From NCBI GenBank assembly GCA_001724265.1, contig MEDY01000079.1, positions 113,245 through 133,244 of the forward strand: a DNA stretch of 20,000 bases, in the 5' to 3' direction. Shown piece by piece: positions 1-20,000 of the stretch (the first letter of the stretch is position 1; each line of letters starts with the position of its first letter). The position numbers and the translations under genes were made by a program. Source of the stretch: Rhizaria sp. SCN 62-66. Lineage: Eukaryota. Below the pieces are notes generated by a model. That model was not told the origin of the DNA and ran no database searches. It saw nothing but the letters and a program-made list of their open reading frames with translations.

Positions 1-2033
1 TGTGCGCGGAAGAAAGGCGTGAGCACGGCGGCTTGGTACCAGCGCTCGAGCAGCTCGGCGGTCGGGTTCCCAAAAAAGCCGCCCACGTCGGCGCCGGCGA
101 AAGAGATGCCGCCGACCGAGAGCGAGAGCAGCATCGCCGTCGTGTCGTGCAGGAATTCCCACGTGGCGAAGTTGTCGCCGGTCCAGATCGCGCCGACGCG
201 CTGCGTGCCCGCGAAGAGTGCGCGAGAGAGCACGAACGTGCGGTGCGTGGGGATCGCGGCTCCGGGCACGGGCGAGACCGACACCGCGCCCGCGGGCGCC
301 CAGTCGGGCAGCACCGTGGTGGGCGGCGTCACAACGGCGGCCTGGCGCGCGGCGAGCCCGTCCTTGTTGGCCATGTGGTAGTAGAGCCCGTAGACGTTAT
401 GCACGTCGCGGTGCTCGGCCGCGCCACCGAAGTGCAGCACGTCCTTGGGCATCGTCACCTCGGGCCCGCTGAACACGGAGGGCTCGTTCATGTCGTTCCA
501 CACGTGCAGCGTGGCGCTGCTGCCCGGGTAGCGGTCCAGCGCGTAGTTCGCCGCCCACTCGCTGCGGACCTCGGCGCGCGCGAAGTCGGGGTACACGGAC
601 CGGCCGGCCCAGCAGTCGCCCTCGTAGACGTCGCCGCCGGCCACGCGCGTGAGCAGGTCCTTGTCGCGCAGCTGGCGGTACACGCCGTAGTTGTCGTCCT
701 TCTTGACGTGCGGGTCAATGATGGTGACGAGGTGGCGGCCGTGCTGCGCCAGCTCGGCCTGCATCGCCACCGGGTCCGGGAACAGCTTGTCGTCCCACGT
801 GAAGTACCGCTTGCCGTCCGTGTGCTCGATGTCGAGCCAGAGAATGTCGTACGGGATGTCGTGCGCCTCGAAGCCGGCGTTGACAGCCAGCACGTCCTCG
901 TGCGACTTGTAGTTCCAGCGGCATTGGTGGTACGCCATCGCGAACCGCGGCGGCAGCGCGGGCAGACCGGTAAGCTTGTGATACTGCGCGGCGAGCGCGG
1001 CGGGCGAGGCCGTGGCGAAGAGGAACAAGTCCATCACACCCGTCTCGGCCACCCAGTGCGTCGCCTCACCAGAGCTCTTAGCTGCGGGCGCCATGACGTC
1101 GACCCACATCTCTGACGGGTTCATGAAAAACGCGCCCGCGGTGAGCGGCCGGCGCGTCGCGCCCTCGCCAACGAGCCCGTGCGCGACGGCCAGCGGCACG
1201 GCGCCGTAGAGCGCCATCGGCGAGTCGAGCTTGTGCTCGAACACATCGAGGTTGAAGAGGCGGTACGGCTCGGTGTACTTGGCGCCGTCGCCGCGCGTGC
1301 GCTTGAGCGCGAGCGACGTCGCGTGCTCGGGCAGACCGTAGAGCGCGTCCGCAGCCGGAAACGTCACGTCGAGCGACACGGCCGTGGGGCCCGAGCGCTT
1401 CTTGTCGGTGTGGCCGTCGAAGCGCTCGCTCCACATCTCTTCGGCGTCGCTGGGTAGGCGCTCGCGACGCTGCTCGAAGCCCAGGAGCTGCTCGCCGTTA
1501 ACCACGGCCGCAACGACGCCGCCCGACGTAAGCTCCACGCGGAACGGCGCAAAGTGCACTGTGGCGCAGAGCTGTTGCTGTGCGTCGCAGAGCGTGGCGC
1601 TGGCGGCGTCGGTCTTGGTCGTGACGCCCTCGGCCAGGTCTAGCGCGGTCGGGATCAGCACGTCGCCCAGCGGGACCTCCCAGCGCTTGCCCTTGGCGGC
1701 CACCACGGCATCGCCCTCCTCAGCGCGCAGGCGCACGACGCCCGCGGCAAGGAACGTCAGCGAGGCCTTGAGCGGCGCTACAAACGTCTCGGGCGACTCG
1801 CCCTCGTTGACGAGCTCGAACGTCACGCCCGAAGCAGTCTGCATCACAGCGCTACCCTTAACGGTGTAGTTACTCGGCGCGCGCTCGCGGTTGCGCTTGC
1901 AGTAGGCCGTCTGCTGGCACGTGCGGAACTTCTTCTCGTCGACTGCGGCGGAGAAACCGAGCAGCATGCTGCAGACGAGAACGAAGAGCGCCAGCCGGCG
2001 GGCGCCCATCATCGGTGCGATCTTCAGGGGCAT
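1..2033 (-). CDS. GANAB: ER glucosidase II alpha subunit (GH31 neutral alpha-glucosidase AB), 3'-partial, continues beyond position 1
   Basis: Manual minus-strand translation from ATG 2033 (alternative in-frame ATGs at 2012 and 2009): MPLKIAPMMGARRLALFVLVCSMLLGFSAA (signal peptide-like), then VDEKKFRTCQQTAYCKRNR, matching the typical glucosidase II alpha N-terminus. Also the GH31 nucleophile motif HVWNDMNEPSVFSGPEVTMPKD (~441-506), the acid/base motif GAIWTGDN (~171-194) and GADVGGFFGNP...RWYQ...PFFRAH at the window edge. Absent from the ORF track because the frame has no stop inside the window. Confidence 0.95.
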   Translation of the reverse strand, partial: MPLKIAPMMGARRLALFVLVCSMLLGFSAAVDEKKFRTCQQTAYCKRNRERAPSNYTVKGSAVMQTASGVTFELVNEGESPETFVAPLKASLTFLAAGVVRLRAEEGDAVVAAKGKRWEVPLGDVLIPTALDLAEGVTTKTDAASATLCDAQQQLCATVHFAPFRVELTSGGVVAAVVNGEQLLGFEQRRERLPSDAEEMWSERFDGHTDKKRSGPTAVSLDVTFPAADALYGLPEHATSLALKRTRGDGAKYTEPYRLFNLDVFEHKLDSPMALYGAVPLAVAHGLVGEGATRRPLTAGAFFMNPSEMWVDVMAPAAKSSGEATHWVAETGVMDLFLFATASPAALAAQYHKLTGLPALPPRFAMAYHQCRWNYKSHEDVLAVNAGFEAHDIPYDILWLDIEHTDGKRYFTWDDKLFPDPVAMQAELAQHGRHLVTIIDPHVKKDDNYGVYRQLRDKDLLTRVAGGDVYEGDCWAGRSVYPDFARAEVRSEWAANYALDRYPGSSATLHVWNDMNEPSVFSGPEVTMPKDVLHFGGAAEHRDVHNVYGLYYHMANKDGLAARQAAVVTPPTTVLPDWAPAGAVSVSPVPGAAIPTHRTFVLSRALFAGTQRVGAIWTGDNFATWEFLHDTTAMLLSLSVGGISFAGADVGGFFGNPTAELLERWYQAAVLTPFFRA

Positions 2034-10323: not shown

Positions 10324-13300
10324 ATGCCTGCTAAAGCACGACGACCTGCGTCAACGAGCAGCCAGTCGTCGCAAGCCACCTCTGGTCCTCCAGAGAGTCG
10401 CCAATTGCAACTCAACCTTCCGCGAATGTCGAGTATTGGTACATTAAGTGTGTCGCCTAACTTAGCGGTGACCAACGCCAACAATACCATTTCCGACGTG
10501 ATTGATATCAGTGACGACTCCAGCTCAGTCAGCACCACGACAACAGCTGCCCCTGATGTGGAGACGATGGATGTCATCAGGCAGTCCACGCAGACTACCA
10601 ACGCTGCGGACGCGATCGAAAAGCCCGCTCCATTGACTCGCACACTAGGTGGCGTCGGCCTGAACCAGTTTGGCGTCTTCAAGCTCGCCAGCAAGACCCC
10701 CGCGGCCACGGCTCCAGCAGCTGCGGCCCCTGCACACGGCCCGCAGCTCCCGCCCGCGCGTTCCGTGTCCACCGCACGCCCGCCGCCGGCGCCCGCCGTG
10801 GCGTCTGCCGCCGTGTTGCCGGCCGCGATTCCCGCTCAGGTGCGCCAGGCGTCGGTGCCGGCCTTCACCGTCGAGCCGGTCTCGGCCAGCGCACTGCGCG
10901 TCTCCGCCAGCTCGCTGCGCGCCGCGGCCGCCGCTGTCACGCCGCGGCGCTCGCCGCGCGCCGCGCTGGGTGACCCGCTCGACGGCGGCAGCGCCCTCAG
11001 CCTCATGTCTGCGCTACCGCCGCCGCCACCACCGCCGCCGCAGGCGCCCGTGGTGCTGGCTGCGCCGGCGCCGCTGCACCGCGAGGCGTCGGCGGTCGGC
11101 GGCCGCTACGGGCTCAAGCGCGCCAACGCGTACACCCTCGGCGATTCCATCAGCTCTGCAACAAGCGCCGCTACAGGCGCAGGCGCCGCTACAGGCGCAG
11201 GCGCCGCTGCGGCGCGCTTGCGGCGCGCGGGCAGCGTCCTGCCATTCGACGGCACCGCTCAGCAGCAGTCCCGCTCGGCGGTCTCGTGGGGGGAAGCCGG
11301 CGACGGCGGCGGCGCTGGTGGTGGCGATATAGCGGCGACGCAGCGCGACGTGTTAGCGACGCAGCGCGATGTGGTGGCGACACAACGCGACGGGCTGCGG
11401 CTGCTGGTCACGCAGTCGGGCGTTGCGGTCTCACAGCAGCACGGCGGCGGCGGCGGTGGCGGGTTCGGACTGCACTCGGTGTCGCAGTGGGACGGCGCGT
11501 GCACGCCGTCTGACCAGCCCGTGCGCGCGCGCAGCGACTTTGAGGTCGCCGAGGAGCTCCACAACCAGCGCGAGGTGCGGCTCGCCACCGCCGCCGCCGT
11601 GCAGCCGCCGGGTCTGCGCGCGCTCCGCGGCCCGCCCGTGCCGCCGCAGCGCGGCCGGCTTACCAGCGGCGTGTCGGCGCTGCGCCGCTTCGACCTCGAC
11701 TCGAGTGACAGCGCGCCCGCAGCGTCTGCGCCTGCGTTCGGCAACGCGGGCCTGCCGCCGCGTGCGCCGCTTAAGACCGCGGCGGCTCCGGCGGCTGCGG
11801 CCGGAGCGGGGCGCGGGCTACTGAGCCAAACCGTGACGTCGATTGACCCTTTTGGGCTCGGTACACAGGGAACTCAGGCTACGCAGAGCGGTGCGGGTGA
11901 TGACGCGGACAACGGCGGCGCGGGCAGCGGCCGCCGCAGCAGCAAGCGGAGCCGGCGCGCGTCGGACGGCCCGCCCGTGCCCGCGCTGCCCACGCTCACG
12001 TTCGGCGACGACGGCGACGGGGACGACGACGCCGCAGTGGAGGGCGATGTTGCGCTTACGCCGTTTGTGCCGCCCCTTTCGGGCGAGACGGCGGCGCACG
12101 ACGACGCGCTCGGGGCCCAGACGGCCCAGATGACCCAGATAGCCCGCGACGCGCGCAAGGACAGCCCTGTGATGTACGCCAGCTCGGGACGCTCGGGCCG
12201 CCCCAGGCCCAGGTCCTCGACGAGCGCCGGCGCTAGTGCCGGTGCGGGTCCCTCCGCGCTACTGGCGCCGAGCGCGCGCGCCGCGACGGCGGCCCGGCAG
12301 TGGACAACGAACCCGTTCGTGCAGTGCGTGGAGGCCTCGGCAGAGCTTGCGGCGCTGGTCGCGGCCCAGGTCCGCGCCGCGCTTGGCTCCGGGCTCGACT
12401 GGGAGCTCCCGCGTGGCGGCGCGGCGCGGACTCTTGTCGCACCGTCGGACCGCCTCAAGGCGTTGCTTGCATCCACGGTGACGAGCTTCAACCTTGAATC
12501 AGTCCCGCTTATTTCCTCCGTCTACGAGACCATTAACAATGACCGCGCAAAAGGTTTGTGCACTTGACTGACATGTTGATCATTTTTTTACTCTGTTCAT
12601 TGATTTCTCCTATATTTGTCTTAACTCACGCCGTCATGTGTATCATCTCTATCGTTTTCATTTACCTCTTGTGTTATAGGTCACTTCGGTGAAATTTTCA
12701 AAGTCATTGACAAGCGCAACGGTTGTCCTTTCGCCGTCAAGCGTCTGCGGCGCGCTGTGACGCAGCTGTCGCAGTACGAACGCGTGATCCAGGAGCCGCA
12801 GGTCTTGGCGCTGCTGCACCTGCCGCTGCGGCCACTGTGGTTGCCATCGCGCTGGAACCCGCACAGTCTGGCGCTGCTGCCGCAATGCGCGTCGTGGGGC
12901 GCGATCCGAGCCCTGGCGCTGGCGTTGGCGCTGAGCGGGTCTGCTGTGTGCGAGAGCACGGCGCGCGCCGACGCGCTGCGCTCGCTGCTGCCCGAGACGG
13001 ACGTTTTTGCGAGGCTCGCGCCAGCTGCGGACGACGACGCGGCGCACCTGCGCACCTCGCTCGGCGGCGACGGCGCCGACGCCGGCCGTGACGCCGGCCG
13101 CGATTCCGGTCGCCGCGCGGCTCCCAGCCCCGCTGTTGCGCAGCTCCTCCCCAGTCTGAGCGCCGACGCGCGCGTGGCCGCGCCCGCGCAGAGCGTGCTC
13201 GTGCCGGGACCGACCTGGGTGTCGGAGCGCATTGTCCACGTCGCCTTTGAGTGGTGCGCGGGCGGCTCACTGGCGGCGCGGCTGCGCGAGTTCCAGCAGA

Positions 13301-15064
13301 CGTCCGCAGCGGCGGCTGTATCCCCCGCGTCGTCGCCACGCGCGCCGTTTATGTGCCCATTCACGACGCTGAACGCACTGCACTCGCTGGCGGCCGCGCT
13401 GACGCGCTGTCACGACCGCGGCATCGCGCATCTTGACGTGAAGCCGGACAACGTGTTGTTGGCGCGCACCGACGCGTCTGGCGCCCCCAGTGTGCGTGGG
13501 CTGAAGCTCGGCGACTTTGGTCTTGCTCGCCCGTTCGACCTCTTCGACCCGGCTCGCGTGCACAGCGGCGAGAAGAAGCCCCTGCACGCCTGGCTCTCAA
13601 GTGCAATTGGTCTCGAGCGGGCGATTGAGAGTGCAGTCTCCCACGCGTTTACGCACCGCGCGCGCATGCTGCCGACGTCCGACGCCGGGCTCGCGGCAGC
13701 GATTGCAGTTCCGGCGCAGGACGCGCCGCAGTGGTCCGACATCGAGGGCGACAAGTGCTACCTCTCCGCCGAAAGCATCGATCCCAGGGTGTGGAAGCTT
13801 CAACGACCCGGGGTGGCACTGCCGCTTGACAAGATTGACATGTTCGCCCTCGGGGCCTCTGCTCTTGAGCTCCACACCGGGCTGCCGCTGCCTGCTGAGG
13901 GCCCCGCGTTTGAGGCTCTGCGCAACTCGCTCTCCGCCGTGAACCTTCCCGATATCTCGACGGCGAGTGACAGTACGCAGGGTTCGTTGCTGCCGAAGAT
14001 GATGCGTCCTGATACTCAAACTGCCTCACTCAGTCCGTTTACTGACGATGTTGCGCGGCTTCAACGCTGCGTTTGCTGCGTTGACGCCACGCCAGCGTTG
14101 GGGACGAGCCCAATGGCGTGTGAACTTTGTGTCGTTTCGCGACAAATCGTTGCCTCAGCGGCTCGGCGCAGTGGCCACAGCTTTGATGTTGAATCCACCA
14201 AGGCTCTCTCGCAGGCGGTTGCGCGTGCCCTAACCCCTGGTCTTACACTAATTTGCCGTTCCTTAATTACATCTCTTATGAGCCGCACAATCTTGGAGAG
14301 GTTCGTACTTATCTGTTGCTATTCTTGATCACTCCTGTTTCGACAAATCACATCGCAATATATAAGTTCGTGGCCATCGTTTTGCTCATTATGAACTGGA
14401 TGGACTTGCTTTCAATTTTTTTAGGCCATCTGCTCCTGTTGTTGTTGAGCTTATTGAAAACACGCTTAGTCGCGCAACAGGTTCTGTGGAAGCAGAGCTG
14501 TTGGCAGTTTTACAAGACACATCACTCCGCCTCCGGCTTGCTTCTTCCGCAGGCATCACACTGTCATTGAGTGTGATCGGTCCACGTCTGGAACGTGCGG
14601 GCTCACACCAACTCGCGAGTATGCTTCTAACCGCGCGGACTGAGTCACTGTTGTCACAAAACTCGACATCGCCAACACAGCCTGTAGCGATGACACAAAT
14701 CCTCCCTCTCGCCGCTGTGAAGAAACAAGCAGCACAAACTCCCGTTGTTGGCCGCCCAGGGCGCGGTGCTGGGAAAATTGGTGCACAAAGCCAAGACCAG
14801 AGCTCACCAACTTTGTCTACGCCATCGAGGCGGGAGCAGCTCAACGGCGAGGTTGAAAGCCTCATTGAGAGTCGCGACAACTTGCTCAGCGAAGTCGAGC
14901 GGCTGCGTGCCGACGTGCTCGTGTGGCAAAATCTGCGTGACTCGCACCAAACAACCACAAACACCGCTTCAGCGCCGCGCGAGCGTTCCTATCTCGGCTT
15001 CACACAAAGCCAGTCGAACACGCAAGAGTCACAAGAGTACAACGCTGGTAGCACATACTGGTAA
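10324..15064 (+). CDS. WEE1: Wee1/Myt1-family CDK-inhibitory kinase; join(10324..12553,12680..14300,14425..15064), ~1496 aa
   Basis: Splicing the two GT-AG introns joins three ORF-track entries in frame (4491 nt). The joins rebuild the Gly loop (AKG|HFGEIFKV..KRNGCPFAVKR) and subdomain XI (ER|PSA). Wee1-type motifs: EWCAGGSL, HLDVKPDN, KLGDFGLA, EGDKCYLSAE, KIDMFALG, LPAEGPAFEALRN. Long low-complexity N-terminus and a coiled-coil-like C-terminal heptad segment (LNGEVESLIESRDNLLSEVERLRAD). Confidence 0.9.
11329..11391 (+). repeat. Degenerate 21-nt coding repeat x3 (IAATQRD-VLATQRD-VVATQRD) in the Wee1 N-terminus
   Basis: Read directly from the DNA and its translation. Confidence 0.9.
12554..12679 (+). 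other. Spliceosomal intron 1 of the Wee1-like gene (126 nt, phase 1)
   Basis: AAG|GTTTGT donor, AT/pyrimidine-rich body, TTATAG|G acceptor. Removal creates the Gly codon of the kinase Gly-rich loop and restores the frame. Confidence 0.92.
14301..14424 (+). other. Spliceosomal intron 2 of the Wee1-like gene (124 nt, phase 2)
   Basis: GAG|GTTCGT donor, T-tract plus TAG|G acceptor. Removal creates the invariant kinase subdomain XI Arg (RPSA) and joins the 14486..15064 ORF in frame. Confidence 0.9.
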
Positions 15065-15240
15065 GCATACGAAGAAATTGTGTGTATTTGACAACTTTTA
15101 CATAGACAATGATAAACTAGAGTCAATATGTCATTAATACAAACGAGAAACGTTTTCAGACAGCATGTTTTCTTGCTTGATATGTAATACGTATAAGGAC
15201 TTTTTAAACATTGATTACTCAGAAAAACGCGTGTTGGATA

Positions 15241-16137
15241 TCATGTGGGCAAGAATGAAGAGAAGTAAATCGATGAAGATGTTGAACTAAACTCTTTGCT
15301 GCACGAGACAGACTTACTGTGTGCTTCAAAGCACGCTGTGACTGTTGCGTCAAAAGGTGACGCTTCAATGTTGGTTATATCACTCCTTTCCGCAACATTC
15401 TTTCCCTTCACACACGAAATAACGCGCCCCACCGGGACAGCTCCCGGCAGCAAACTCGCAGCGCAGGGCTGAAAGACCAGAAAAACGGGGGTATCGTATG
15501 TACCTCGGCCAGCGTGAGTCATTACGCTAGGAATCACCGAGCGCGGATGCATCAGCACCGTGCCGGCGGGATACGTCATCCCAGCTGGGGGCGGAGAATT
15601 CTCACTATAAACGAGGTCACCCAGTGGCAACGTGCATGGTAGCTCAGCGCAGGGAACATCGTTGCTAGGGTGATACAGTGTGACGTAAGGAAGTGCTGCT
15701 GGTGTGTTTTGGGACAGTGCAAAACAACGGTGCACCATATGCCCGAGAGCGCCGTTTTTGGCCGCAGCGCGGAAGTGCGCGGCGTGGGCCGGCAATTTGT
15801 TATCATCGAGCTTGACCACCATCATATAGCCGACGTGCCACGCACGCTGCGGGTCATAGACCTCCGCCCGAAAAACAACATCTGCCTTCACATGCTGCGC
15901 GCCCACCATCGCTGCGGCGCAGATCATGATCCGCGCGCGCGCCCGCGCCTGGAGCAGCGCAAGCGCCGCCGCGGACGGAGCGGTATGGTTCCACTCAGTG
16001 GCGGGAGATATTACTCCCCAACAGTTCACACGCAGCGGGTAGCCGCTCTCTTCGACGCTCTGTCCGATGTACATGTTAAACGAGCCACGCTCACCATCCC
16101 AGAATGGCTGAGCAAACGCACGGACATCGAGCAATGC
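15241..16137 (-). CDS. ORF with a degenerate cyclophilin-like domain (~15331-15882). In frame with the upstream ARM ORF; start and 3' end uncertain
   Basis: By-eye alignment to cyclophilin A: KLPAHAAHFRA vs KVPKTAENFRA; GHMVHRCF vs GSCFHRII; SEN vs DEN; AGTVLM vs PGILSM; GTYDTPVFL vs NTNGSQFFI; LPGAVPVGRV vs LDGKHVVFGKV; KGKNV vs EGMNI; TVTAC vs TIADC, all colinear. First own ATG is at 16074. A consensus donor GTAAGT at 15317 suggests the last ~25 codons may be intronic. Confidence 0.7.
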   Translation of the reverse strand, partial: ALLDVRAFAQPFWDGERGSFNMYIGQSVEESGYPLRVNCWGVISPATEWNHTAPSAAALALLQARARARIMICAAAMVGAQHVKADVVFRAEVYDPQRAWHVGYMMVVKLDDNKLPAHAAHFRAAAKNGALGHMVHRCFALSQNTPAALPYVTLYHPSNDVPCAELPCTLPLGDLVYSENSPPPAGMTYPAGTVLMHPRSVIPSVMTHAGRGTYDTPVFLVFQPCAASLLPGAVPVGRVISCVKGKNVAERSDITNIEASPFDATVTACFEAHSKSVSCSKEFSSTSSSIYFSSFLPT

Positions 16138-17763
16138 CTATCGTCGACGTAACATATCTTCAGCTGTTTCCACGTGTGTTGTCGGTATGAGCGCCATCCT
16201 TTCGAGCAGTGCGCGCAGTTGCCAAAGCTCGTGCAGTGCTGGGCTATCCTGAGTCATACAGTCGGTAAAACGGAGAAGGTCGATTGCCTGCAGTCCACGT
16301 GCTTTTAAAAACGCCGCGGCAAAGGCATTATGAGGCGTCATCCCCTCGGTCATCACAGTAGCATCAGGATCCGTGTCGCCAATGGCGATGAGCTGTCGCA
16401 ACACACGCAGAAGTGTCGCGGCTGTGTCGCAATCGAATCCGCTCGCATCAATGTGTGTGCCATCATCGTTGTCAACACCCAGATTTCTATCGCAAAGGGC
16501 CGCAGCCAGCAGTACGCGGGTGCAATATTCCAACCCGTCTCTTTCAAGTACCAGCTGTACAAGCTCTGGATCATAATCCGTGTCTTTTAAGAGCGCATCG
16601 AGCAAGCGTGTCACCTCGCGGGCAAGACCGGAAACAGCAGAAAATGTGCCCTCAAACACAGAGTCGGCAACTTTGAGACGCGACAGAATCTGAGAGAGAA
16701 AGTCCTCTTGAAGCAACCGCGCTGCTCCACCTGGCACGGCGGCCGCCACACGCGCCATCACCGCGACGAAGAGCGTCTGCACCCGGCCGCCGCTGACCGC
16801 TTCGCTGCCGATCGCGCCGCACAGAGCGGACAGACGCGCCGGTGTAAAAATGCGCGCGAGCATCTCGTCGCTCAGAGAGACGGCGCGGCGCAGCAGAAGC
16901 AGTCGTGAAGTCATTGCAGGACAGTCGCGCTGGGCAGCTGCGAGGTCGCCGTAAGTCACACAGTCGAACGTGTCGCTGAGGGCGAACTCTTCGAAGTCGG
17001 CACAAGAATCGCTGTCCTCAATATCAACACTGAACACGCCCGCAGTAGCGCGAAGAGTGTGCGCACGAACCAAGCCTCGAAATGAAGTCGCAGCTTCACC
17101 AAGACCCCAGCTATGCTTGAGCATGGCGAAGAGCGAGGGAGTGAGAATAGATACGGCGGGGTACAACAAAGATGAACCAGGACTTGTGCAAAGCATAAAA
17201 ACCGCATTGCAACACTTGGTATACATCACAATGTCTGTGATAGAGTTACTCTCTGTCTCCTGTGCCAGCCGGATACGCGGCATCAGATCCTGGTGCAAGT
17301 AAGCGCTGAGATAGGTCAGGGAAGAATTCTTGGCTGCCAAAGAGAGCAAAGCAAGGGTTGAGTACCTTGAGCACAGTCGGGCGGTTGTACACATCACATT
17401 GTGTGCCAGTATAGTTGTTGACCCCGTTAAAAGTGAGCATAACCCTTCGAAAGCGCCTCCCGTGGCAAGCATGGAGCAGCCTTGGTTCGAGGCAGAGATA
17501 CTACCAAAGATGGCGACGATGGAGTCACGCCGGATCTCAGCAGCCAAATCTCCGGTGAGGGTCAACGTCCGCGTCAAGAAATCAACCGTTTCAACCATCA
17601 CGGGCATCCCTGGATTATTGTGCTCGTTAAAATAGCTATCAATGACCGATTGAAACCTGTTGACGGTGGTAACGCTTGGGGACAGAGACATGACATCGGC
17701 CAGAGCCGTCGCAAATGCGTTCATCACATGCGGTGTTGCATTCGCATGTGCACCAAGACTCAT
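16138..17763 (-). CDS. Divergent ARM-repeat (importin-alpha-like) protein, copy 1, ~541 aa to the TAG
   Basis: Long helical amphipathic ORF; most likely ATG at 17763 (MSLGAHANA...), where composition shifts from AT-rich. The C-terminal LLRVLRQLIAIGDTD...NAFAAAFLKARGLQAIDLL resembles the importin-alpha terminal repeat pattern (LE.LENIL.VGE...N.YA..I.E.GGLEKIE.LQ). No basic IBB domain is visible. Confidence 0.65.
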   Translation of the reverse strand: MSLGAHANATPHVMNAFATALADVMSLSPSVTTVNRFQSVIDSYFNEHNNPGMPVMVETVDFLTRTLTLTGDLAAEIRRDSIVAIFGSISASNQGCSMLATGGAFEGLCSLLTGSTTILAHNVMCTTARLCSRYSTLALLSLAAKNSSLTYLSAYLHQDLMPRIRLAQETESNSITDIVMYTKCCNAVFMLCTSPGSSLLYPAVSILTPSLFAMLKHSWGLGEAATSFRGLVRAHTLRATAGVFSVDIEDSDSCADFEEFALSDTFDCVTYGDLAAAQRDCPAMTSRLLLLRRAVSLSDEMLARIFTPARLSALCGAIGSEAVSGGRVQTLFVAVMARVAAAVPGGAARLLQEDFLSQILSRLKVADSVFEGTFSAVSGLAREVTRLLDALLKDTDYDPELVQLVLERDGLEYCTRVLLAAALCDRNLGVDNDDGTHIDASGFDCDTAATLLRVLRQLIAIGDTDPDATVMTEGMTPHNAFAAAFLKARGLQAIDLLRFTDCMTQDSPALHELWQLRALLERMALIPTTHVETAEDMLRRR

Positions 17764-18382: not shown

Positions 18383-19186
18383 TCACTCTGATCTAAACCC
18401 ATCGCCCACTTGGTATCCGTCGTACTCATCCGCGATGTCCTCTCCGCTCAAGCGTGCCTCGAGTGCAGCGGCGTCGGTAACATCGCCGACAATAACGTCC
18501 ACAAGCTGGCGCAGTGCCACAGCCAAATCCCTCGTGTCGACAGGCACTGCTTCGTCCTGAAGCAGCTTTAAAAGCGCGTTGTGACCGCCATCCGCAAAGA
18601 AGGACGACAAAAACACGTTCCGGGGCTCGGTGACTTCGGTCAGCACCGTGGGGTCACCGTCTGTATCGCCAGTCGAAATCATGATCCGCAAATTATGAAG
18701 CAGATGATAATAAAGTGGCTGCGAGGTTGTGAATTGAGCAGCAGCTACCAGAGACCATGTGCAGTAGCGAAACGCGCCGCATTTATGCAGCTTCCGCGCC
18801 ACAGCCCCCTGGGTTGTGTTGACTTGGGCTGTCACGGTCAGCGCGTTGTGTAGCGCCCACAGCATGTCGCACGCTAGCGTCCACAGACCGAGCTTGCTAT
18901 CGTCGTCAACGCCGCCGCTCAGCGCGGGCGGCACAGGCACGACCGGGACTAACGCCTGGAGCGCGCCCGCGGCCAGAATGCGCGCCACCATCGTGGGTCC
19001 ATCGGCCATCAGGTCCGACAGCAGCCATAGTAGCGTCTGATTGTATCGGCATCGCGCGGTCCCAGTGCCGCAGCCAGCCGGCAGCCGGCGCAGGTGCACC
19101 AACGTGGGCGCCGTGAAGACCTGCGTGGGCATTTCAGGGTCGAGCGCGACAATCTCGCGAAGGAAAGTCAGCAAATGCGCACGCCT
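18383..19186 (-). CDS. Divergent ARM-repeat (importin-alpha-like) protein, copy 2; 5' end unresolved (terminal exon, truncated gene or pseudogene)
   Basis: Colinear with the C-terminal half of copy 1 (GAFRYCTWSLVAAA / GLEYCTRVLLAAA; ISTGDTDGDPTVLTEVTEPRNVF / IAIGDTDPDATVMTEGMTPHNAF). ARM H3-like motifs LWLLSDL and LWALHNAL; acidic tail. Open from just after the TAG at 19189-19187; first ATG at 19132; ends in TGA. Confidence 0.65.
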   Translation of the reverse strand, partial: RRAHLLTFLREIVALDPEMPTQVFTAPTLVHLRRLPAGCGTGTARCRYNQTLLWLLSDLMADGPTMVARILAAGALQALVPVVPVPPALSGGVDDDSKLGLWTLACDMLWALHNALTVTAQVNTTQGAVARKLHKCGAFRYCTWSLVAAAQFTTSQPLYYHLLHNLRIMISTGDTDGDPTVLTEVTEPRNVFLSSFFADGGHNALLKLLQDEAVPVDTRDLAVALRQLVDVIVGDVTDAAALEARLSGEDIADEYDGYQVGDGFRSE

Positions 19187-19413
19187 CTAGGTGTTGCCGT
19201 GCAGCTGCTCACAAATATTTGCTTGAATCACCAGCAACAAGCTAGCGGATGCTCATCTCACGTGAGTTGAGCAGATATAACCGAACAAATGTCCAGGTTC
19301 ATACCTTAAACTAAAAGGATTGCTCCCTTTTGTTTTGACAGTTGAACCTGAGACCCTCGCTCAGCTGCATTATTTTGACGATGTTGAGAGCACTCAGGGG
19401 CGAAGCTTTGAAC

Positions 19414-19935: not shown

Positions 19936-20000
<65 letters not shown>
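19928..20000. repeat. (AC)n/(GT)n microsatellite running to the window end
   Basis: ~36 dinucleotide units with one A>G interruption at 19940, preceded by a degenerate (AAC/CAG) stretch. Confidence 0.98.

Follow-up and report, generated by a model that had tools for sequence, protein, structure and literature searches.

What does a single in-frame stop codon signify when the frame that it closes remains open beyond it for a whole further domain? This question is raised by a locus in the assembly of Rhizaria sp. SCN 62-66 (GenBank GCA_001724265.1), located in a stretch of 20,000 nucleotides (nt) of contig MEDY01000079.1 (positions 113,245 to 133,244 of the forward strand) that was analyzed as a whole and is here called the window, with its first letter as position 1. 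On the minus strand of this window, an open reading frame (ORF) for an ARM-repeat protein, ORF 1 (16141–17763), ends in a TAG (16138–16140), directly after which the same frame continues as ORF 2 (15244–16137), encoding a cyclophilin-like domain (CLD), until a TGA at 15241–15243. We consider it about an even bet (probability roughly 0.5) that the TAG is a fixed and young nonsense allele, derived from CAG within a tandemly duplicating ARM–CLD family, and that the locus now encodes an ARM-only protein together with a stranded but intact CLD ORF.

The arrangement itself was as the sequence-only reading had described it, when sequence and frame were read again. ORF 1 comprises 541 codons from the ATG at 17763 to a last codon CGA at 16143–16141, and the frame up to the stop is ...GAT ATG TTA CGT CGA CGA TAG on the minus strand (TAG at 16140–16138); gene finders predicted its product, P0001, with a start at ATG 18033 rather than 17763. 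Directly past the TAG, which lies four codons ahead of a conserved D/E-x-R-x-F motif, the frame of ORF 2 reads ALLDVRAFAQPF... and stays open for 298 codons until the TGA at 15243–15241, a gene end that roughly matches the C-termini of relatives. The first ATG past the TAG (16072–16074, residue 22 of ORF 2, giving the predicted 277-residue product P0013) was indeed located only 63 nt downstream, at 16074, and the claimed lack of an AT-rich spacer at the junction held as well, since the GC content was 0.51 within 50 nt on each side of the TAG and 0.56 across the 63-nt stretch between TAG and ATG, compared with 0.39–0.49 in the four intergenic spacers of the window and 0.35 in its sole verified intron. 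The GC content at third codon positions was 0.57 in the N-terminal half and 0.60 in the C-terminal half, versus 0.75–0.91 in the neighboring genes, with weak codon bias in both halves. A stalling role for the CGA-CGA pair preceding the stop was also considered; the pair occurs one more time in the neighboring genes, and no support for such a role was found.

The TAG is genuine sequence and not an assembly artefact. It was covered with no differences by contigs from two further studies, P2 (2025) and P3 (2017), besides P1 as the probable source study (X2 record 1, spanning 14900–16714, and X4 record 7, spanning 15496–16186), and the product ending at the TAG was predicted on six contigs. In a sequencing-run index, the window was found in bioreactor, wastewater and activated-sludge metagenomes. 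A sequencing or assembly error, as had been listed among the possible explanations, has nothing in its favor except the prior chance of error in metagenome assemblies, and with the sequence being identical in contigs from P1, P2 and P3 and the shortened product recurring on six contigs we give it a practically negligible probability.

The two ORFs are, moreover, one ancestral gene of about 840 codons. When the read-through product was used as query, four relatives of 639–878 residues were found at 33–37% identity, all four being continuous over the junction. In a profile search among 1.84 billion representatives, 125 proteins were found at E ≤ 1e-3, of which 69 reached E ≤ 1e-30, and many of these matches, such as P0009, P0011, P0012, P0014, P0019, P0022, P0024, P0029 and P0047, held both halves in one stretch. 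The family profile in turn gave a single match to the six-frame translation of the window (positions 2–794, nt 17742–15247, 1120.8 bits), running through the TAG. The proposal of a single ARM-cyclophilin gene, made from the letters of the window, is thereby borne out, as relatives are unbroken at the junction and one profile match crosses the stop. It was also clear that this stop is not conserved. In an anchored, ungapped comparison the TAG lies at position −4 from the D/E-x-R-x-F motif, where all 37 aligned relatives have a sense codon, with Gln as the commonest residue (16/37) and Arg in 6/37; relative P0030, for example, reads VRRRQTAA-DVRPF where the window reads MLRRR(TAG)ALL-DVRAF, with the motif following the hyphen. 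An apparent insertion of three codons at the TAG (RR plus the stop) proved to be an alignment artefact, the gap closing once the 37 relatives were anchored on D/E-x-R-x-F.

With the TAG at a Gln position, a single CAG-to-TAG transition would be its simplest origin, and among the explanations listed for this locus a nonsense allele of that kind gave the best fit. We propose that the ancestral product was a solenoid of about 540 residues with ARM repeats, joined to a divergent CLD of about 300 residues, and that a single C-to-T change converted the Gln codon CAG, located where the C-terminal domain starts, to TAG, an allele that is fixed in all samples examined. Translation would then stop after the ARM half to yield a 541-residue ARM-only protein, leaving the CLD ORF stranded in the 3′ part of what would be the same transcript. 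The CLD ORF would still be intact because the lesion is young, and its product would be made at most in trace amounts, through ordinary near-cognate decoding of UAG as Gln.

Judged from the relationships among family sequences, the stop is lineage-specific, since the nearest rows to the window in a tree of the ARM part were the fused forms P0029, P0008 and P0030, and since ARM-only ORFs were scattered over that tree (12 changes, where shuffles averaged 13.7 and 94 of 500 gave no more). This tree was poorly resolved, with 5 of 46 inner branches starred, and was used solely for the nearest rows and for the lack of clustering. It omitted the near-duplicates P0004, P0005, P0006, P0108, P0129, P0131, P0132 and P0134 as well as proteins filling less than 75% of columns 285–478, and its label for stops in the linker included ORFs ending at profile positions 440–467, for which other causes are possible. 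Elsewhere in the window TAG behaves as a stop, with no in-frame TAG or TAA in the 4192 codons of four neighboring genes, 114 of which are Gln codons.

Both halves could be modeled with confidence as folded domains. For the N-terminal half, AlphaFold2 with an alignment of 32 relatives gave an all-helical solenoid (predicted local distance difference test, pLDDT, 85.4; predicted template modeling score, pTM, 0.84), and a Foldseek search of PDB with this model placed importin-alpha ARM domains at the top (E 8.6e-8, query TM-score, TMq, 0.60, target TM-score, TMt, 0.72, about 510 columns), at a sequence identity of 10–14%. A protein-atlas search led to the ARM-type families Rap1GDS, UNC45-central, Arm and ARMC8, whereas no Pfam Arm or IBB match was found at E ≤ 1, which together with the low identity sets this half apart from importin-alpha proper. 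As ARM solenoids generally resemble one another, the description of ORF 1 as importin-alpha-like applies to the predicted solenoid fold and not to family membership. The half retains 24 of 31 family-conserved residues (seventh lowest of 31). At its cut-off Pfam recognized neither half, and the sub-threshold matches of the two (SelB-wing at E 0.075 and Argos at E 0.12) were regarded as noise.

For the C-terminal half, with an alignment of 43 relatives, the AlphaFold2 model (pLDDT 91.0, pTM 0.91) showed a barrel preceded by helices at residues 2–9 and 15–30, the modeled domain thus starting directly after the TAG. In a Foldseek search of PDB, almost every row listed was a cyclophilin or a cyclophilin-like protein (best E 6.5e-4; probabilities reached 1.00), with a likeness that is moderate and not close, as the best matches had TMt 0.50–0.56, 9–18% identity and a root-mean-square deviation of 7–17 Å. 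A protein-atlas search led to Pro_isomerase, DUF8179 and DUF3830. Neither the C-terminal half nor the fused reading matched the family of cyclophilin-type peptidyl-prolyl isomerases, PF00160, at E ≤ 1, and a profile search of PDB sequences gave no cyclophilin; its sole match, YabJ at E about 0.4, was dismissed as chance. Compared with that family, the C-terminal half has the beta-barrel in common and differs in having two additional helices at its N-terminus and in being extended at its C-terminus. The earlier name of pseudo-cyclophilin therefore stands as to fold and fails as to PF00160 membership, and we regard the domain, on the basis of its model, as a divergent cyclophilin-like barrel.

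The CLD family also has sequence features of its own. As the middle residue of its invariant H-x-C-F motif, 14 of 43 sequences have Thr, 10 have Arg and 7 have Gln, with Arg in the window. We take this residue to be the counterpart of the catalytic Arg of cyclophilins, in their F-H-R motif; if it is, its variability would mean that the family is not one of conventional prolyl isomerases, and it would mark another difference from PF00160. The invariant residues peculiar to the family are H136, C138, G192, G232, A233, P235 and G237. All 43 members have His136 and Cys138, and nearly all have Cys163 and Cys225 (numbering of the C-terminal half, 15244–16137, minus strand); these conserved residues suggest that the family has a metal site, or a Cys/His active site, of its own. 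A prediction of a complex between the ARM half and the CLD scored 0.00, a value that says nothing on binding, as it was made without alignments and with the fold of the partner uncertain.

Could the TAG instead be removed from the message by splicing? A 36-nt in-frame intron, GTGGAA...GATAG (16173–16138), has GT/AG ends, a length divisible by three and a GC content of 0.44, in an organism that has spliceosomal introns, and some family ORFs end where this candidate begins, for example P0060 (...APDTA). However, relatives have coding residues opposite its 12 codons, which include the Gln/Arg position and a Glu that is invariant in a five-sequence alignment, and the verified intron of the window, the one reference on which the comparison rests, is different, with 126 nt, a GC content of 0.35, a GTTTGT start and a pyrimidine-rich 3′ end. 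No splice joint was found in any run, with no RNA contig covering the site. The 36-nt intron is hence very improbable in our view, and the 66-nt alternative that had also been suggested fares no better, its segment likewise aligning to coding residues in relatives.

There are several observations that a young nonsense allele does not readily account for. ORF 2 shows no decay, as its 298 codons are free of further stops and frameshifts, 51 of 57 family-conserved residues are retained (mid-range, being 18th lowest of 43 sequences) and the native TGA is kept; such an intact C-terminal half fits a young lesion and continued use alike. Contigs from RNA libraries were found on both halves (X8 at 16800–17249, X9 at 15829–16086 and 17256–17398), although these are three contigs with none over the TAG, for which DNA carry-over is possible, and they are too sparse to establish one transcript or a ranking of expression. 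At least eight representative ARM ORFs (P0001, P0060, P0062, P0076, P0087, P0107, P0108 and P0112) stop inside the same linker, and as these occur on 1–7 contigs each, with the longest being 10–191 kilobases (kb), they are true ORF ends and not contig ends. In two more lineages there may be an ARM ORF and a CLD ORF on a common contig (P0131/P0055, 151,102, with P0133/P0139, 5,988; and P0135/P0110, 5,712), as judged indirectly from the identical size of the longest contig, with the pair of the window itself (P0001/P0013, 48,204) as control. Finally, a second in-frame TAG lies in a tandem paralogue, and TGA is the stop at each of the four real gene ends of the window.

Some of these points would be explained by functional readthrough, programmed or tolerated, with one mRNA whose main product would be the ARM-only protein and whose minor product would be full-length ARM–CLD, a near-cognate tRNA reading the UAG, probably as Gln and thus as the ancestral residue. 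The C-terminal half is intact, well conserved and ends at its native stop, there is no spacer, the modeled domain begins directly after the TAG, and RNA-library contigs lie on both halves. Both product forms also occur as separate genes in the family, and ARM-ORF/CLD-ORF pairs may recur in two other lineages, given the equal sizes of their longest contigs. A precedent is Drosophila kelch, where one transcript carries two ORFs parted by a UGA and both proteins are produced (PMC2138045), and which resembles the present locus in having two long ORFs in the same frame, a single stop between them and a folded domain after the stop. Here, in contrast to kelch, the codon is UAG, the stop is not conserved, with sense codons in the aligned relatives and fused forms as the nearest ones, and neither a stimulatory context nor a structure is recognizable. 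None of the RNA contigs extends over the TAG. The context UAG-GCA-UUG, with G as the next base, matches no leaky stop context that we know of. No RNA structure was found after the stop, with 75-nt windows whose starts ranged from 3 nt ahead of the TAG to 57 nt past it giving folding z-scores against shuffles of −1.11 to +0.75 (gene-wide mean 0.04, standard deviation 1.04). Programmed readthrough, the first explanation that the sequence-only reading had offered, is thus not supported, and we consider functional readthrough in either form rather unlikely.

If the CLD is still in use, it could alternatively be made alone with the ATG at 16074 as start codon, through either reinitiation or an internal promoter, so that a gene fission would have left a locus for two proteins. 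The family does include CLD-only proteins and CLDs with other N-terminal partners (P0036/L001, P0037 and P0042), the downstream ORF is intact, and one of the RNA-library contigs lies inside the C-terminal half. However, a start at this ATG would leave the product without helix 1 and with just the second half of helix 2, two helices that have pLDDT above 90 in the model, and the 63-nt stretch between TAG and ATG is coding-like, without the AT-rich spacer typical of every real gene boundary here. Reinitiation downstream of an ORF as long as 541 codons is, furthermore, inefficient in eukaryotes. We therefore find fission improbable.

The remaining alternative to a nonsense allele is that UAG is a sense codon in this organism, either reassigned or ambiguous and rarely used, probably for Gln, in which case the gene would simply be intact. 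Evidence that bears on this came from the second in-frame TAG, found in a tandem paralogue of the ARM-only type (18383–19252, minus strand; ATG 19132, TGA 18385–18383). This paralogue corresponds to residues 190–468 of the ARM-only family protein P0115 at 32% identity, and its homology reaches as far as 19228 (tblastn match 19228–18479), upstream of its ATG, with the BLASTP score against P0115 rising from 52.8 to 62.8 bits upon upstream extension. The TAG (19187–19189, minus strand) is found in this homology-supported upstream part, where it aligns with a His of P0115. Residues 1–189 of P0115 had no tblastn match in the window, and as the N-terminal ~190 residues of the paralogue are thus missing there, its upstream part may be a relic. 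In this 20 kb of the organism there are two in-frame UAG codons in the two family genes and none in the four neighbors.

A distant relative, the metagenome locus L001, in which the CLD follows a coiled-coil region in place of ARM repeats, has a 641-codon frame (1–1923, plus strand) that lacks TAA and TGA and is broken solely by three TAGs (412–414, 862–864 and 1027–1029), one of them just ahead of its CLD. One of these faces TTG/CTG (Leu) in paralogous repeats, one faces AAG (Lys) and one faces a TAG in L003, a sister copy, and L001 could derive from an organism with TAG as sense codon or be a young pseudogene. Nuclear codes with UAG alone reassigned are documented for two protist lineages, the rhizarian exLh with UAG as Leu and Iotanema spirale with UAG as Gln (PMC5304391), and those systems are akin to the present one in view of its in-frame UAG at a Gln-consensus position and its UGA gene ends, while differing from it in that the 4192 neighboring codons are free of in-frame TAG. 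Of these codons, 114 are for Gln; TGA at all gene ends is also expected in a GC-rich genome, the TAG of the paralogue aligns with His in what may be a relic, three TAGs as in L001 would be expected from random nonsense hits about one time in ten, and L003 is clearly degenerate. In addition, family ORFs of 700–950 residues were predicted under the standard code and the relative L002 ends in TAA. No tRNA gene, and hence no suppressor tRNA, was found in the window, of which the 20 kb are far too little to judge the matter, and no Rfam family was found there either. The points for a variant code are weak, and we hold it to be quite unlikely that UAG is a sense codon here. More specifically, that UAG is translated at low frequency, probably as Gln, in this uncultured, GC-rich, non-ciliate eukaryote of activated sludge, by an early-stage or ambiguous reassignment, appears a shade less likely still, and the same may hold for the organism behind L001. 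If UAG were sense, the ARM–CLD gene would be intact, and the two TAGs of the window as well as the three of L001 would be ordinary sense codons.

A nonsense allele that strands one domain is in keeping with what was seen in the rest of the family. L003 (1–2527), a tandem copy of the L001 gene, is degenerate, with a 21-nt deletion by which a conserved EESGYPRR motif is lost, a 5-nt frame-shifting insertion and several TAGs; downstream of it comes the start of a next copy. The fused relative L002 (340–700), with its terminal TAA, has one frame change in its ARM part (from frame 1 to 3, near 560–680), due either to an indel in the assembly or to damage in this family member as well. Identical sizes of the longest contigs suggest partial copies beside full ones (P0046 with P0008, P0058 with P0002). 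Taken together with the truncated paralogue of the window, these cases look like a birth-and-death family, in which the two domains are often separated or lost. Collections of viral contigs and genome contigs were scanned and gave no relatives, none of the family proteins looked up had a name from its source, and the family has no Pfam model. Two of the database proteins, P0005 and P0143, both end in ...IGRAHV, which we take to be translated Illumina adapter, these two presumably running into untrimmed adapter at contig ends.

The genes surrounding the locus are GC-rich, lie on both strands with AT-rich spacers between them, and include those for a GH31 glucosidase, an ABC transporter (2224 residues) and a protein kinase. 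The latter extends over 10324–14328 (plus strand), where a 747-codon ORF (10324–12553) and the protein-kinase ORF, which has no ATG ahead of its glycine loop, form one gene by means of an intron at 12554–12679 (126 nt, GTTTGT...TTATAG, GC content 0.35), with an apparent TGA at 12565–12567 falling inside it. This canonical intron shows that the organism is a eukaryote in which spliceosomal introns are sparse. The spacer between the kinase gene and the ARM–CLD locus (14329–15240) shows a rise in GC content to 0.57 at 14501–15000, with overlapping ORFs of 130–192 codons on both strands; ORFs at 14253–15134 had no Pfam match, and this spacer may hold a small unrecognized gene. The window closes (19941–20000) with some 60 nt of (CA)n/(TG)n microsatellite.

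That one member of a multigene family should acquire a premature stop is an ordinary event. What is new is the sizeable family in which it occurs, known so far from environmental sequence alone, where an ARM solenoid is combined with a divergent CLD in 125 representative clusters; a limited literature search joining these domain terms found no paper on such an architecture, and a role of the protein in nuclear transport or as a decoy is speculation. The locus appears to have caught a separation of domains early, as the stop falls precisely where the second domain begins and each part is as yet intact. With the recurrent ARM ORFs ending in the linker and the further in-frame TAGs, it also offers an inexpensive test for leaky termination or a rare reassignment of UAG, which would concern an unsampled eukaryotic lineage.

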